Of a DNA stretch of 64,000 nt, positions 3,787-57,881 are shown piece after piece. The position numbers and the translations under genes are program-made. The stretch lies in the NCBI GenBank assembly GCA_046539325.1, contig JBKHHD010000002.1, positions 53,425 through 117,424 on the forward strand, in the 5' to 3' direction. Each line of letters starts with the position of its first letter. Position 1 is the first letter of the stretch. The notes under the pieces were generated by a model, which worked only from the letters and a program-made list of their open reading frames with translations, did no database searches and was not told the DNA's origin. Origin of the DNA: Candidatus Aenigmatarchaeota archaeon. GTDB lineage: Archaea > Aenigmatarchaeota > Aenigmatarchaeia > PWEA01.

Positions 3787-3866
3787 AAGGGACGATGAAT
3801 TGAGTTTTGTGAACACCCTTTGATCCCGAGAGGGAGATGATAGTAAGACGATCACAAGAGTCCCTT
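3787..3866 (+). ncRNA. Box C/D guide RNA in the 16S-23S ITS (predicted targets 23S U2552 and U1920)
   Basis: Terminal stem AAGGGAC/GTCCCTT, two K-turn motifs, 10- and 11-nt perfect complements to 23S obeying the D+5 rule. Confidence 0.85.
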
Positions 3867-3967: not shown

Positions 3968-6922
<2,955 letters not shown>

Positions 6923-7067: not shown

Positions 7068-7523
7068 TGTGGTGAGCTGGAGAGGGACCACCGGGATAGT
7101 TTGGATGAGGTTGTTTTCCTTCACAGGAAACACCCTTGTATTCCCGGAGGAAGCTCCTCCCACCCGTTGTGCTGTAAAAGTGCAACGAGGCCCAGGCTCG
7201 CAAGAGTCCGTCCTGAGAGGGAACGGAACAGGGAACAGAAACGATACCCCCGCGCTGGAGCGTTGAAAGCTGAGAAGGCACGGAGGGATGGAACGTACCC
7301 TGATCTGGGTGGTGCAAGACCAAATAGGCTCCGGGAAATGGATGTGCCTTGCACGTCGGTCTCTTGGAGCGGGTAGGTCGCTATTTGGAGTCCGTGAGGG
7401 CTTCAAACTTGGAAGCATCTGCTTCCGAGAAGATGAATGTCCCGAAGACCTGACATGGACGCGGACTTCGTCCACGTCGTTTTTGGGTCCGAACAGAAGG
7501 AGGGCTACTCCCAGCACACCACA
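7068..7523 (+). ncRNA. rnpB: RNase P RNA
   Basis: P4 halves GAGGAAGCTCCTCCCAC and AACAGAAGGAGGGCTAC, AGAAAC and GGTGCAAG motifs, terminal pairing TGTGGTG/CACCACA, TATA at ~7039. Confidence 0.9.
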
Positions 7524-22812: not shown

Positions 22813-23193
22813 ATGGCAAAAGATTTTACGTTCAGAGGCAAAACGGTCGAAGAGCTTCGTGAGCTGGATCTGACGGAGTTCGCCGAGCTGCTGGACTCAA
22901 GGAAAAGAAGAAGTCTACTCAGAGGTCTTACTGACGCTCAGAAGGATCTACTTGAAGGCGTCAGGGAAGGCGAAGACTACGTCAAGACCCAGGCCAGAGA
23001 CATGGTAATTCTACCTGAGATGGTAGGAACTAGGATAGGAGTTCACAACGGAAAGGACTTCGTTGACGTAGAGATCGAGCCTGAGATGATAGGACACTAC
23101 CTTGGCGAGTTCGCAAAAACGAGAAAGAAGGTCGACCATTCAGCGCCAGGACTCGGAGCTACAAGAACCTCGAAGCACGTGCCTCTGAAGTAG
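22813..23193 (+). CDS. rps19: Ribosomal protein uS19
   Basis: [10 protein letters not shown]. Confidence 0.98.
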
Positions 23194-23207
23194 TAAGGTG
23201 AAAAAAT

Positions 23208-23597
23208 ATGACAGGATATCCGGTTCAGGTTGAGGAAGAAGACGTGAAGGCAGCAGGCATAGATCTCAGGATTTCAAGAAAGAAGGCACATAAAATCTGC
23301 AAGGAAATAAACAACAAGAAGATGAAGCTGAACAGAGCAAAGGAGTTCGCCGAGAACCTCGTCGAAGGCGACGAGAATATAGGAGGTAAAACGTACAAGA
23401 AAGCTGCGGAAGGCGTACTTGAGGTACTGAACAACGCAGAAAACAACGCAGAGTTCAAGGGAATTGACACTGGAAAGCTGAGAATCAAAACAATAACAGC
23501 AGAACCCGGAAGCACGCTCCGAAGAATGAGAAGGAGAAGGGATTTTGGAAACAGGTTAAAAACAGCTAACGTAAAAGTCGTACTTGAGAGAGGATAA
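23208..23597 (+). CDS. rpl22: Ribosomal protein uL22 (short form)
   Basis: LRISRKK, LNNAENNAEFKG; position. Confidence 0.92.
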   Translation: MTGYPVQVEEEDVKAAGIDLRISRKKAHKICKEINNKKMKLNRAKEFAENLVEGDENIGGKTYKKAAEGVLEVLNNAENNAEFKGIDTGKLRIKTITAEPGSTLRRMRRRRDFGNRLKTANVKVVLERG

Positions 23598-23598
23598 A

Positions 23599-24429
23599 AT
23601 GACACTTGAAAGAGAGTTTATCAAGAAAGGCATAAACAAGAACCAGCTGGAGGACTTTTTTGAAAGAGAGTACCCGAGAGCTGGCTACACAGGCTGTGAT
23701 ATTAAAAGAACACCTATGGGAGTTAAGATAACGATATATGCCGATAAGCCTGGTCTTATAATCGGCAGAGGTGGCGGAAGAATCGACGAGATCACAGAAA
23801 AGCTAGAGGAAGACTTCGGCTTTGAGGACCCGCAGATAGATGTAGATGAAATCGAGAAGCCTGAACTCGACGCGAAAATAATGGCAAAGGAGATAAAAAA
23901 CGCTATCGAGAACGGCGCCAGCTACAAGAGAGTTGCTGGAGGAGTTTTAAGAAGTATAATGAACAGAGGGGCTGCCGGAGCTGAGATAAAGATATCCGGC
24001 AAGCTTTCAGGAGCAAGAGGAAGGACGGAAAGGTTCCAGGATGGATATATGAAAAGCTGTGGTGAACCTGCGAAAAGACTTGTGGACAAGGCTGTGATGC
24101 ATGCAAAGACCAAGCCCGGTACAATAGGAGTAAAGGTAAAGATAATGGAAGAGAAGCCGGACGAAGGGCTGAAGGACGTGGAAGAGGAGACGGAAGAAGA
24201 GGAGAAAGAAGAGGAGACGGAAGAAGAGTTTGACCTTACAGAGGAAAAGGTAAATGAAATAATTGACTCATCGATTTCAGGGGCAAAGGACAAGATAAGG
24301 GAAATTGAAGACGAACTGGACCTCGAGGACTATAAGAAGATACTCGATTACGAAATGGACGACAAGAAGAGGAAGGGCATGATGAAGTTCCTGAAGAAAA
24401 AAGTGGATGAATTCAGCGAGGAGGAATAA
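23599..24429 (+). CDS. rps3: Ribosomal protein uS3 with acidic C-terminal extension
   Basis: PGLIIGRGG KH motif, GTIGVKVKI. Confidence 0.97.
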   Translation: MTLEREFIKKGINKNQLEDFFEREYPRAGYTGCDIKRTPMGVKITIYADKPGLIIGRGGGRIDEITEKLEEDFGFEDPQIDVDEIEKPELDAKIMAKEIKNAIENGASYKRVAGGVLRSIMNRGAAGAEIKISGKLSGARGRTERFQDGYMKSCGEPAKRLVDKAVMHAKTKPGTIGVKVKIMEEKPDEGLKDVEEETEEEEKEEETEEEFDLTEEKVNEIIDSSISGAKDKIREIEDELDLEDYKKILDYEMDDKKRKGMMKFLKKKVDEFSEEE

Positions 24430-36228: not shown

Positions 36229-36611
36229 GTCAGAGAAAAGGTCTAGCAAGAATACACTCGTCCGAGAACAACACTATCATACATATAACTGATATGAGCG
36301 GCGCAGAAACTATAAGCAGATACTCTGGTGGAATGGCTGTGGATCAGGACAGGGACAAAGGCGAGCCGTTTGCTGCTATGCAAGCAGCAAAGAAGGCAGC
36401 CAAAGAGGCAAAGGAAAAGGGAATTGACAAGGTAGATATAAAGGTAAGAGCTCCAGGCGGACACGGCTCAAAGAGCCCAGGTCCGGGAGCACAGCCTGCT
36501 ATCCGTGCTATAGCCAGAGCCGGAATGAAAATAGGCAAGATTGAAGATATAACTCCAGTGCCACATGATTCAACGAGAAGGCCTGGAGGCAAAAGAGGAA
36601 AGAGGGTCTGA
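36225..36611 (+). CDS. rps11: Ribosomal protein uS11
   Basis: [16 protein letters not shown]. Confidence 0.98.
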
Positions 36612-36613
36612 TT

Positions 36614-37396
36614 ATGGAATTTGAAAAGATTGAGGAGGACGACAAGAAGCTTAAATTTGTTACAAAGGATACAAATCCAGCTATGATGAACGCTTTGAGA
36701 AGGATCTCGATGAACTACATTCCTGTGCTTGCAATAGAGGACGTCGGAGTAAAGGAAAACAGTTCGCCGATATTCGACGAAGTTATAGCCCAGAGGCTGG
36801 GGCAGGTACCGCTTGTCTTTGATCCAGACAAGTTTACGTTGAAGGGAGAATGCGACTGTGAAGACGGCTGTCCTAACTGTGAGGTTGACTTCACGTTTGA
36901 AGGCGAAGGACTTGGAAGGCTTTACTCGAAGGACCTCGTCTGTGAGACGGGCGATATCGAGGTACTATATGACGAGATACCTATAACAGAGATGGATGAA
37001 AATCAGAGGGTCGAGCTTGAAGCAACCGCAGTATTATCGAAGGGAAAAGATCACTCGAAACATCAGGCAGCTATTTCCTCGTACCAGTACTACCCTATAA
37101 TCGATATAGACAACGATGAGCTCACGAAAGAAGAAAAGGGTCGCTGCGTCGAGGTGTGCCCAAAGGATGTTTTTGAGCTCGATGGCGGCGACCTGAAGGT
37201 TTCAGAGGAAAAGAAATGTACTGTATGCAAAGAATGCGTCAACGAAGTGGATACAGGCGTAGTAGTTACAGGCGACGAGGAGAAGTTCATATTCACCATA
37301 GAGTCTACCTGTTCACTAAGCCCCCAAGAAATAATTGAGAAGGCCGCTGACATACTTGAGAAGAAGTCCGAGAAGGTAGTCGAAAAGTTAAGCTAG
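36614..37396 (+). CDS. rpoD: RNA polymerase subunit D (Rpo3) with ferredoxin-like insert
   Basis: NALRR, CDCEDGCPNC, CPK..CTVCKEC. Confidence 0.96.
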   Translation: MEFEKIEEDDKKLKFVTKDTNPAMMNALRRISMNYIPVLAIEDVGVKENSSPIFDEVIAQRLGQVPLVFDPDKFTLKGECDCEDGCPNCEVDFTFEGEGLGRLYSKDLVCETGDIEVLYDEIPITEMDENQRVELEATAVLSKGKDHSKHQAAISSYQYYPIIDIDNDELTKEEKGRCVEVCPKDVFELDGGDLKVSEEKKCTVCKECVNEVDTGVVVTGDEEKFIFTIESTCSLSPQEIIEKAADILEKKSEKVVEKLS

Positions 37397-37538
37397 CGGG
37401 GGTAACCAAGCGGTCAAGGTAAAGATACGACTAAAGGTGCAGGACTTAAGCTCTCAGCTTAAGTATTGAGGCCCATTGGGCGATGATAAGAAATCCTGTG
37501 GCTTAGTGCCTTCGTCGGTTCGAATCCGGCCCCCCGCA
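37396..37538 (+). tRNA. tRNA-Leu(TAA) with D-loop (37418-37434) and 37/38 (37451-37492) introns
   Basis: GCGGGGG/CCCCCGC acceptor, CAGGA-CT-TAA-G..A-TCCTG, BHB motifs. Confidence 0.9.
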
Positions 37539-37558
37539 TCAACAAAGAGGTTTTGGAT

Positions 37559-37912
37559 ATGGAAAAAACGAACCCGGTACTGAAGAAGACTGTAAGCAGG
37601 CTCGAGGAGAAAGGCAGAAAGGAAGAGTTAGATTTATGGAAGGATCTCGCCAAGAGGCTGAAGAAGCCAAGAAGGAACAAAAGTTCGGTAAATATCTCAA
37701 AGATAAACAGACATGCAAAGGAAGGCGAAACTGTAGTCGTTCCAGGAAAAGTAACAGGCTACGGTAGCTTGGATAAGGATGTGGACGTTGCTGCATTTGA
37801 TTTTTCAAAAAGCGCAAAGGAGAAGGTGGAGGAAGGGGGCAAGGTTATGAGTATACTGGATCTAGCTGAGGAAAATCAGGAAGGCGAAAACGTAAGGATA
37901 ATGGAGGGTTAA
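37559..37912 (+). CDS. rpl18e: Ribosomal protein eL18
   Basis: VNISKINR, VVVPGKV. Confidence 0.96.
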   Translation: MEKTNPVLKKTVSRLEEKGRKEELDLWKDLAKRLKKPRRNKSSVNISKINRHAKEGETVVVPGKVTGYGSLDKDVDVAAFDFSKSAKEKVEEGGKVMSILDLAEENQEGENVRIMEG

Positions 37913-40899: not shown

Positions 40900-41019
40900 G
40901 GGTCCGTAGCTCAGCCTGGCAGAGCACTGGGCTTTTAACTTAATATGTTAAAAGAGCTAGACGTTATGTCGATGATGAAAGAAACCCAGGAGTCGCGGGT
41001 TCAAATCCCGTCGGACCCA
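40900..41019 (+). tRNA. tRNA-Lys(TTT) with 37/38 intron (40938-40983)
   Basis: CTGGG-CT-TTT-A..A-CCCAG. Confidence 0.92.
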
Positions 41020-49636: not shown

Positions 49637-49719
49637 GGTATCACGTTTTCTTTTATTGAAAGAGTATTTAAAGGTATGGGTCGAAAATATTTAAGTGATG
49701 AACTAAAAGGTGTGATGAT

Positions 49720-50094
49720 ATGTTAAGAAACAGGTCAAGAAGAAGATTAACCGGTGGCAAGAGAAAAAGCAAGAGGAAGTTCAGGAAGCACGAGCTGAAG
49801 AGAGAAAGTATCCTTTGCAAGGTAGGGAACAAGGAACGCAAGAAGAGAATAAACGTTAGGGGCAACCAGGAAAAAGTGAGAGCAAGGACAGTCGGAAAGT
49901 TAAACGTAGCCGACAGTGAAGGAGATACGAACATGGTAAAGATAGAGGACGTGCTCGAAAATGAGGCCAACTCCCATTTCGTCAGAAGGAGTGCACTGAC
50001 AAAGGGGACAGTAGTCAAGACGGAAAACGGCAAGGCAAAGATAACATCAAGGCCTGGTCAAGAAGGTATTGTAAACGCTGTAAGGATAGAGTAA
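49720..50094 (+). CDS. rps8e: Ribosomal protein eS8
   Basis: TSRPGQEGIVNA. Confidence 0.96.
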   Translation: MLRNRSRRRLTGGKRKSKRKFRKHELKRESILCKVGNKERKKRINVRGNQEKVRARTVGKLNVADSEGDTNMVKIEDVLENEANSHFVRRSALTKGTVVKTENGKAKITSRPGQEGIVNAVRIE

Positions 50095-57231: not shown

Positions 57232-57768
57232 ATGGGGCAAGAGTTTACTGGGGAGATTTATTCTGACTGGATGAAGTCCACTCAGGAGAAAAAGTACAGG
57301 GAAATCATCTTAGAGTTTATACTTCCCATCAAGGATAAAATAGATCTGAGCAGTGACAGAGTACTGGATGTAGGGGTAGGTAAAGGATGGTTCGAGAAGA
57401 AGCTACACGAAAGAGAGATTGAATCAAGTATTACAGGTCTGGATGTCGATAAAACGGACTTGGCGATTGAAGGAATCGACTTTGTAGTAGGTGATGGGAA
57501 CAGAATGCCCTTTGAAGACTCTAGCTTTGATTTTGTGATCTCATTCGATACAATCCATCTTCTAAAAAGGCCAAAGGAAATAGAGAGAGTAGTTTCAGAA
57601 GGAGGCTATGCTCTGATCTCGACATACTGCAACGAAAGAAATTTTAAAAGTAGAGGCGACAAAGTTAAATCATTGTTCGACATGGAAATATTGAAGGAGG
57701 GCGTAGTTGGTGATCCAAGCCACGAAATGAGCTACGTGGTGCTTTTCAGAAATGGGTCCGTGGTCTAG
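57232..57768 (+). CDS. Class I SAM-dependent methyltransferase
   Basis: VLDVGVGKG, MPFEDSSFDFV. Confidence 0.88.
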   Translation: MGQEFTGEIYSDWMKSTQEKKYREIILEFILPIKDKIDLSSDRVLDVGVGKGWFEKKLHEREIESSITGLDVDKTDLAIEGIDFVVGDGNRMPFEDSSFDFVISFDTIHLLKRPKEIERVVSEGGYALISTYCNERNFKSRGDKVKSLFDMEILKEGVVGDPSHEMSYVVLFRNGSVV

Positions 57769-57881
57769 TGGCTAAGAACCTTTTCCGCTGACGCGCAAAA
57801 CGTTCACGAAAAGGATTGTCCACAAATGACGTCGCCTTGACATGGCGAAGGTCCCCCGTTCAAATCGGGGCGGACCCACCA
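57754..57881 (+). tRNA. tRNA-Val(GAC) with D-loop intron (~57774-57825), CCA encoded
   Basis: GGGTCCG/CGGACCC acceptor, TCGCC-TT-GAC-AT-GGCGA. Confidence 0.9.

Follow-up and report, generated by a model that had tools for sequence, protein, structure and literature searches.

The window analyzed here is a stretch of 64,000 nucleotides (nt) of contig JBKHHD010000002.1 (positions 53,425 to 117,424) from a Candidatus Aenigmatarchaeota archaeon. It contains a gene for tRNA-Leu(UAA) with two introns, the second of which probably carries a guide of the box C/D type for the 2′-O-methylation of U34 in the anticodon of the same tRNA. The host genome (715 kb in 10 contigs, 45% G+C, with an estimated completeness of ~91%) has introns in many of its tRNA genes. 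The tRNA-Leu(UAA) gene reaches 143 nt because of its two introns, and it sits in a tight gap between one open reading frame (ORF) that ends at 37396 and another that begins near 37553-37561. That it is a real tRNA gene is indicated by the pairing of the acceptor arms (37396-37402 with 37531-37537), by the presence of a T arm and by orthologs in relatives. The features of the locus are as follows (window coordinates).

37396-37538, plus strand: tRNA-Leu(UAA) gene, 143 nt; the mature form would have 84 nt without CCA
37418-37434, plus strand: first intron, 17 nt, in the D loop, interrupting the D arm; boundaries inferred by hand
37447-37449, plus strand: anticodon UAA, read from the sequence; U34 (37447) is the predicted methylation target
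37451-37492, plus strand: second intron, 42 nt, at the canonical 37/38 site, carrying the guide module; bulge-helix-bulge found by inspection
37456-37464, plus strand: guide, a 9-nt perfect complement of 37444-37452 (from A31 to the second intron base)
37466-37469, plus strand: D′-like box UUGA, the same box as in a spacer small RNA (sRNA) that points to a U of the 23S A-loop (see below)
37471-37481, plus strand: hairpin GCCC-AUU-GGGC (stem 37471-74/37478-81), which would close a kink-turn (K-turn) and act as C-stem
37483-37489, plus strand: C′-like box AUGAUAA, of which A6 can pair with U1 of UUGA
37487-37490, plus strand: UAAG, the 3′ strand of the splicing motif's central helix, overlapping the C′ box; found by inspection

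The gene was annotated manually. Neither ARAGORN with default settings nor the Rfam tRNA model reports it. With introns allowed, ARAGORN gives the span 90820-90962 of host contig C2 (window 37396-37538) and miscalls it as Leu(aag) with a single 59-nt intron. Standard tRNA finders, in practice, miss or misname such intron-bearing genes. Read by hand, the anticodon stem is formed by 37440-44 and 37494-98. At the 37/38 site, the 5′ splice site falls between G37450 and C37451, and the splicing motif is a bulge-helix-bulge with a central helix of 4 bp (37445-48/37487-90) and 3-nt bulges at 37449-51 and 37491-93.

For the D-loop intron, the boundaries were set in the sole register that yields a 3-4-3 bulge-helix-bulge, with a helix 37412-15/37429-32, bulges at 37416-18 and 37433-35, an inner helix 37419-21/37426-28 and a 4-nt inner loop. 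The energy of this motif is +0.6 kcal/mol, so that it is weak on its own. The 17-nt intron occurs in the genus and the family and is absent from more distant orthologs (e.g., L012). An 18-nt intron at 37421-38 was also considered and rejected, as no register of it gives a bulge-helix-bulge.

The putative guide in the 42-nt intron

An inverted-repeat search finds 37444-37452 and 37456-37464 to be fully complementary over 9 nt (100%) and 3 nt apart, with the repeat spanning the 5′ splice site. A single base, A37465, separates the guide from UUGA. A37461, five bases upstream of UUGA, pairs with U34 (T37447 in the DNA), so that the nucleotide designated by the N+5 rule is position 34. The preliminary description, made from the sequence, had placed here GCTTAAGT at 37457-37464, followed by A, TTGA and a GCCC/GGGC hairpin, and all of these elements are exactly in place (A at 37465, TTGA at 37466-37469). 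Its pairing of the guide across the 5′ splice site is borne out by the perfect inverted repeat, and its assignment of the D+5 position to U34 agrees with A37461 standing opposite T37447. The last element named there, GATGATA, is indeed present at 37482-37488, but the C′-like box is better read as AUGAUAA, one base further on.

After the hairpin GCCC-AUU-GGGC the order in the intron is GAUGAUAAG. The elements of a K-turn can be recognized in the stem 37471-81, a GAU bulge and the GA/GA tandem. By the general rules for K-turns, the pairs would be G37485-A37469 and A37486-G37468 (both sheared), followed by U37487-U37467 and A37488-U37466. One extra base, G37470, is missing in most relatives. As in canonical archaeal box C/D sRNAs, there is an internal D′/C′ motif with tandem GA, and the guide lies directly upstream of D′ with its target opposite the fifth base.

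A loose form of the motif (TTAAGT-NNNGA-N4-34-RTGA) has two matches in the window against 0.65 expected, and at least two matches are found in 16 of 100 shuffled sequences. The loose motif alone is therefore not rare, and the module owes its significance to its location next to its own target and to its conservation. The other match (49691-49718) lies just upstream of an ORF starting at 49720; it is probably due to chance, or possibly a K-turn-like leader. A further caution comes from the palindromic nature of CTTAAG, since the anticodon loop, if simply repeated in direct orientation, would resemble a guide. With a UAA anticodon, direct and inverted repeats cannot be told apart, and the whole arrangement could in principle be an accident or the relic of a duplication. 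The comparison with relatives and with other tRNAs bears directly on this.

Conservation in the class and in other tRNA introns

We searched 201 genomes of the class with a 12-nt exon word ending at G37, leaving the intron unconstrained, and 115 genomes matched. From the 124 sites parsed, 14 were dropped (13 without exon 2, which look like chance matches, and one, L011, cut by the end of a contig), leaving 110 tRNA-Leu(UAA) genes from 110 genomes. A 37/38 intron is present in 108 of the 110 genes. In 94 of them there is a second complement of the anticodon, distinct from the 3′-terminal strand of the splicing helix. A GA dinucleotide occupies box positions 3-4 at the exact N+5 offset opposite U34 in 91 of these 94 introns; chance would give ~10 of 94 (the GA dinucleotide frequency in these introns is 0.106). 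A RUGA follows 7-34 nt downstream of D′ in 89 of the 91 modules, and both boxes are thus kept in 89 of the 110 genes. The module is found in 23 of 27 families and in 54 of 68 genera. The Leu(UAA) intron guide, if it is one, is thus present in most sampled genomes of a whole class.

The sequence of the module varies within narrow limits. The D′ box is UUGA in 42 cases, AUGA in 17, CUGA in nine, AGGA in eight and UCGA in four, with rarer forms of the NNGA type. In the 94 introns the guide 7-mer is CUUAAGU (73), AUUAAGU (14) or UUUAAGU (five), among other variants. In a MAFFT alignment of the 37 distinct modules whose boxes are 12-16 nt apart, no columns are invariant other than UUA-GU in the guide, GA in D′ and UGA in C′; the variable hairpin is not placed in fixed columns by MAFFT. 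Between the boxes, the relatives have a hairpin or else a short loop (a K-loop, e.g., in family f20). Stems that abut the boxes and have at least 4 bp can form in 40 of the 62 distinct inter-box segments (those of at least 10 nt), and in 1000 shuffles of the segments such a stem occurs in 6.2 on average and in 14 at most. The 40 stem-forming segments use 32 different stem sequences. This is the pattern expected of a K-turn, as judged from the sequences, and not of sequence inertia.

The C′ box abuts the 3′ strand of the splicing helix, as it does here, in 21 of 89 modules. Elsewhere the distances differ, with the box up to 118 nt from the end of the intron; in L021, for example, GAUGA is followed by an insertion and then by a separate UUAAGAA. 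With so few modules sharing the abutting arrangement, the C′ box does not simply follow from the splicing motif. The loop in family f12 consists of G37 followed by AAA. We also looked for guide copies that could act in trans in five genomes with a module-less Leu(UAA) intron, and the matches are no more frequent there than in a reversed control. In a second class (around G201), most Leu(UAA) genes among the matches listed are without introns, and the module occurs in G217, G220 and G236.

Similar units occur in other tRNA genes of the host genome (coordinates on its contigs).

C2:24664-24801, minus strand: tRNA-Leu(CAA), with the two-intron layout of tRNA-Leu(UAA)
C1:116084-116240, minus strand: tRNA-Trp intron guide, a UUGA-hairpin-GAUGA unit in an 82-nt intron; N+5 is C34
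C3:32387-32516, plus strand: tRNA-Met(CAU) intron guide; N+5 is C34
C4:60220-60372, minus strand: tRNA-Thr(UGU) intron guide; N+5 is U39; gene miscalled as Arg by ARAGORN
C3:60548-60691, minus strand: tRNA-Tyr intron guide, in C-guide-D order with a 6-bp closing stem; N+5 is C39

A loose scan of the genome for NTGA-hairpin-NATGA gives 207 matches, mostly due to chance, and served only to spot the compact ones inside tRNA genes. In the Leu(CAA) intron, CUUGAG is followed by two bases, UUGA, a GGAA/UUCC hairpin and GAUGAG. The guide has a G, where the UAA intron has an A, opposite C34, and N+5 is again position 34. A class-wide pattern for Leu(CAA) (a CAA anticodon arm with a gap of 20-50 nt) retrieves 19 stretches from 18 genomes. 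Of these stretches, seven contain the module, each time with G opposite C34 and with the same spacing; among the 12 without it, several resemble coding DNA. Two genomes of family f8 (G056 and G032) have Leu(CAA) genes (L028 and L031) without a 37/38 intron, and there the guide unit is found in the D-loop intron, where CUUGAG and two further bases are followed by AGGA or AUGA, a hairpin and either UAUGA or AAUGA, with the N+5 spacing to C34 kept. The unit thus seems able to move between intron sites.

These observations contradict the idea of an accident or a duplication relic, which we regard as highly improbable. In the Leu(CAA), Met, Trp, Thr and Tyr introns, where the two kinds of repeat can be distinguished, the second copy is a reverse complement and not a repeat. 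And the Leu(UAA) module, although the local motif is not rare in the window, is kept over most families with the functional bases alone invariant.

Another type of tRNA intron recurs in these genomes. It has the form AACCTTTT ... AAAAGG with an inner hairpin, and is found at window 57754-57881, at C6:3691-3868 and C8:7380-7514 of the host genome, and in L216, L217 and L198. A similar intron takes the place of the guide intron in the Leu(UAA) genes of G011, G021 and G043. These AACCTTTT introns may constitute a mobile family.

The spacer sRNA and the methylation enzymes

The spacer between the 16S and 23S rRNA genes contains a complete C/D-like sRNA (window 3787-3866), which serves as an internal positive control for the box format. 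Its parts are, in order, a terminal stem of 7 bp, GAUGAAU, the first guide, UUGA, a hairpin of 4 bp, GAUGAUA, another guide and AAGA, the terminal D box. The first guide is a perfect 10-nt complement of the 23S rRNA at window 6579-6588, and its N+5 base pairs with U6582. This residue aligns with the U of the A-loop GGC-U-GUUCG in E. coli 23S rRNA (annotated position 2553 in the 2905-nt copy), which we take to be U2552 in standard numbering. U2552 is the universally 2′-O-methylated residue of the A-loop, and in bacteria the methyl group is added by FtsJ/RrmJ. The box format and the N+5 rule together hit the expected methylation site in a genome without a detectable FtsJ, and it is therefore reasonable to regard UUGA as a functional D′ box. 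For the second guide, a match of 9 nt is found at index 1983-1991 of the 23S rRNA.

The protein components are encoded as well. The genes for fibrillarin and Nop5 are adjacent in the host genome (C2:22464-23108 and 23119-23733), and a gene for L7Ae is present. No member of the FtsJ/Trm7 family was found in the genome (~91% complete). TrmL was likewise not detected at that completeness; the sole enzyme of the SpoU family scores as TrmJ/YjtD (the position-32 type), far below the cut-off for TrmL. The tRNA-Leu(CAA) gene with its intron guide shares its strand with nop5-fibrillarin and is located ~930 bases upstream of that pair (C2:22464-24801, minus strand).

Two other RNA matches in the window may be mentioned. 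An RNase P RNA is matched at 7072-7519 with a score of 85.7 (Rfam gathering score 84); since the match covers 448 bases for a model of 288 positions, it would contain large insertions. A weak match to CRISPR-DR4 (36368-36395; 21.4 bits, E 0.26) lies inside an ORF and is taken as chance.

Proposed mode of action and relation to known systems

What we observe directly is the anatomy of the module, the extent to which it is conserved, a guide base that changes together with the anticodon, and genes for the proteins. At the level of sequence, the guide proposed in the preliminary description has held up well: the N+5 spacing is conserved, the guide base follows the anticodon, the only invariant elements are the guide core, GA and UGA, pairing in the inter-box hairpin persists despite changes in sequence, and the proteins of the ribonucleoprotein (RNP) are encoded. 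It had also been claimed that the guide pairing excludes the bulge-helix-bulge, and the folds agree. Both use C32-A35 and, in the host genome, also U37487 and A37488, and sharing these bases makes them mutually exclusive. The conformer with the guide hairpin and the box hairpin has an energy of −17.6 kcal/mol and the minimum-energy fold one of −18.6 kcal/mol, while the bulge-helix-bulge conformer has −8.6 kcal/mol and reaches −13.7 kcal/mol at best when it is enforced; folding energy models give K-turns no score.

We consider it likely that pre-tRNA-Leu(UAA) has, in its 42-nt intron, a minimal box C/D-type guide with a single K-turn, which would act in cis on the precursor to produce 2′-O-methyluridine at position 34 (Um34). 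Protein binding, methyl transfer, action in cis and methylation ahead of splicing are inferred steps. UUGA and AUGAUAA, joined by the short hairpin, would form the K-turn, to which L7Ae would bind and then recruit Nop5 and fibrillarin. The transcript's own anticodon loop would be paired with the 8-9 nt just upstream of UUGA, and the nascent precursor would adopt this guide fold first. Fibrillarin would then methylate U34 in cis by the N+5 rule, after which the RNA would refold into the bulge-helix-bulge, or be captured in that form by the endonuclease, ahead of cleavage. As a speculation, dimers of Nop5 might bridge two precursors. Action in cis appears the most likely because the gap between target and guide is only 3-5 nt and the guide hairpin is the most stable fold. 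RNA-seq data for Methanopyrus, in which modifications are reported to precede the removal of introns, fit the proposed order (PMC3695527).

Several points weigh against a guide of this kind. Canonical archaeal sRNAs have two K-turn motifs, whereas the intron has one and lacks a terminal C/D pair. The guide duplex has 8-9 bp (6-9 bp in relatives) instead of the usual 10-12, although the target is tethered. The D′ box is UUGA and not CUGA, the C′ box is AUGAUAA and not RUGAUGA, and the extra G37470 between UUGA and the stem would place a mismatch or an unpaired base beside the sheared pairs. A scan with Rfam matches no C/D family at the intron. The tRNA-Lys(UUU) gene of the window (40900-41019) has an intron with a perfect AUGAUGA and with 8 nt complementary to the anticodon loop, and its N+5, counted from the nearest NNGA box (UAGA), is U33, which the rule leaves unexplained. 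Among the related Leu(UAA) genes, 19 of 110 are without the module, which must then be dispensable or replaced. Finally, the Leu(UAA) introns share ancestry and relatives are not independent, so that the counts across them overstate the independent support.

The main alternative is an action of the same RNP in trans, with the excised intron, linear or circularized by the ligase, guiding Um34 on other precursors or on the spliced tRNA-Leu(UAA). Action in trans has been reported for the pre-tRNA-Trp of Haloferax (PMC4090602, PMC7994747), as have stable circular Trp introns (PMC3326292). In a circularized Leu(UAA) intron, 18 nt would separate the C′ box from the UUGA coming after it, which is the normal C-guide-D order. 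And in the two genomes with the Leu(CAA) module in the D-loop intron, the guide is far from its target, so that a tight local hairpin is not required. On the other hand, in 86 of 91 Leu(UAA) modules 3-13 intron bases stand ahead of the guide core, which keeps the target close. Mature tRNA has a structured anticodon loop, and the guide offers just 8-9 bp. With the intramolecular hairpin as the minimum-energy fold, pairing in cis should win on the precursor, and we hold action in trans to be unlikely.

A more remote alternative is that the module is a structural or timing element without any methylation. A hairpin that masks the anticodon and a K-turn bound by L7Ae would then stabilize the precursor or delay its splicing, and the spacing would be kept for architectural reasons. 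The competition of the guide fold with the splicing motif is compatible with this, as are the single K-turn and the short duplex; L7Ae is also reported to bind K-turns outside C/D RNAs (PMC5539422). Such an element leaves unexplained the exact N+5 offset in 91 of 94 introns, the choice of positions 34 or 39 (the known positions of the Trp intron) by unrelated introns and the use of the same box format toward the U of the 23S A-loop. We give it little weight.

If the cis-acting guide is accepted, the 2′-O-methylated nucleotide at position 34 (Nm34) that bacteria make with TrmL and eukaryotes with Trm7 would be specified here, on the same tRNAs, by a guide inside their own introns. The different routes to Nm34 on the same tRNAs point to a strong and convergent need for the modification. 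So far, intron-borne guides have been regarded as peculiar to tRNA-Trp, with the tRNA-Met of Nanoarchaeum as a single additional case. Here they would be present in the Leu(UAA), Leu(CAA), Met, Trp, Thr and Tyr genes of one 0.7-Mb genome, which offers a concrete function for tRNA introns in reduced genomes. A natural guide with one K-turn would test how much of a C/D RNA is needed, and the Leu intron offers a clean system for separating cis from trans and methylation from splicing. More tentatively, one can imagine natural half-mer C/D RNPs working strictly in cis on an anticodon tethered by the hairpin, with a guide fold stable enough to block the bulge-helix-bulge, so that methylation of position 34 becomes a checkpoint to be passed or released ahead of splicing; many tRNA introns would then persist in small DPANN genomes because they stand in for lost protein methyltransferases (e.g., FtsJ/Trm7 and TrmL), and the guide unit would be portable between intron sites. 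Taken as a whole, this wider picture is possible but doubtful.

The closest known system is the intronic guide of pre-tRNA-Trp (Haloferax volcanii; Pyrococcus sR50). In both, the guide is in the 37/38 intron of its own target, N+5 falls at position 34 and the guide pairing is incompatible with the bulge-helix-bulge. The Trp intron of Haloferax guides positions 34 and 39, and a 2014 review calls the Trp intron a unique example (PMC4090602). According to the same review, the Trp intron has ~65-105 nt, with C/D and C′/D′ motifs and two guides for 34 and 39; the Leu intron, in contrast, has 42 nt, one K-turn and one guide. In three species of Pyrococcus, the first anticodon position is the predicted target of four C/D sRNAs, for tRNA-Leu(CAA), Leu(UAA), Met and Trp, and the Trp one alone is described as intronic (PMC7994747). 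This archaeal precedent is absent from the preliminary description. The predicted targets in Pyrococcus furiosus include C34 of Leu(CAA) (PMC7668247). The tRNAs and the nucleotide are thus the same as here (PMC7994747, PMC7668247). The Pyrococcus sRNAs for Leu(UAA), Leu(CAA) and Met differ in being free-standing genes with two motifs that act in trans, whereas the Leu guide is built into the intron of its target.

In another DPANN archaeon, Nanoarchaeum equitans, a C/D-like RNA was described within the elongator tRNA-Met intron, only Trp being given as known before (Randau 2012; PMC3491384). It is likewise a C/D-like RNA in a tRNA intron other than that of Trp; unlike the Leu intron, it has 66 nt, resides in Met and has been seen as a stable RNA (PMC3491384). 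The product predicted here is the same as that of bacterial TrmL on Leu(UAA) and Leu(CAA) and of eukaryotic Trm7-Trm734 on Phe, Trp and Leu (PMC6847430 for Trm7). Unlike the Leu intron guide, both are protein-only systems without a guide RNA. Half-mer box C/D RNAs, laboratory constructs made for in vitro and structural work, have one K-turn and one guide, as does the Leu intron, which would be a natural half-mer tethered to its substrate. In the full-text literature searched, we found no description of a guide in a tRNA-Leu intron or of a natural intron guide with one K-turn; supplements (PMC6009581, PMC7668247) and the snoRNAdb tables, which are outside that scope, might list further tRNA guides. 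The Leu intron would be an intron-borne, probably cis-acting box C/D-type guide for Nm34 with a single K-turn, belonging to a broader group of such guides in this lineage, and would represent a novel variant of the intronic guide of pre-tRNA-Trp.

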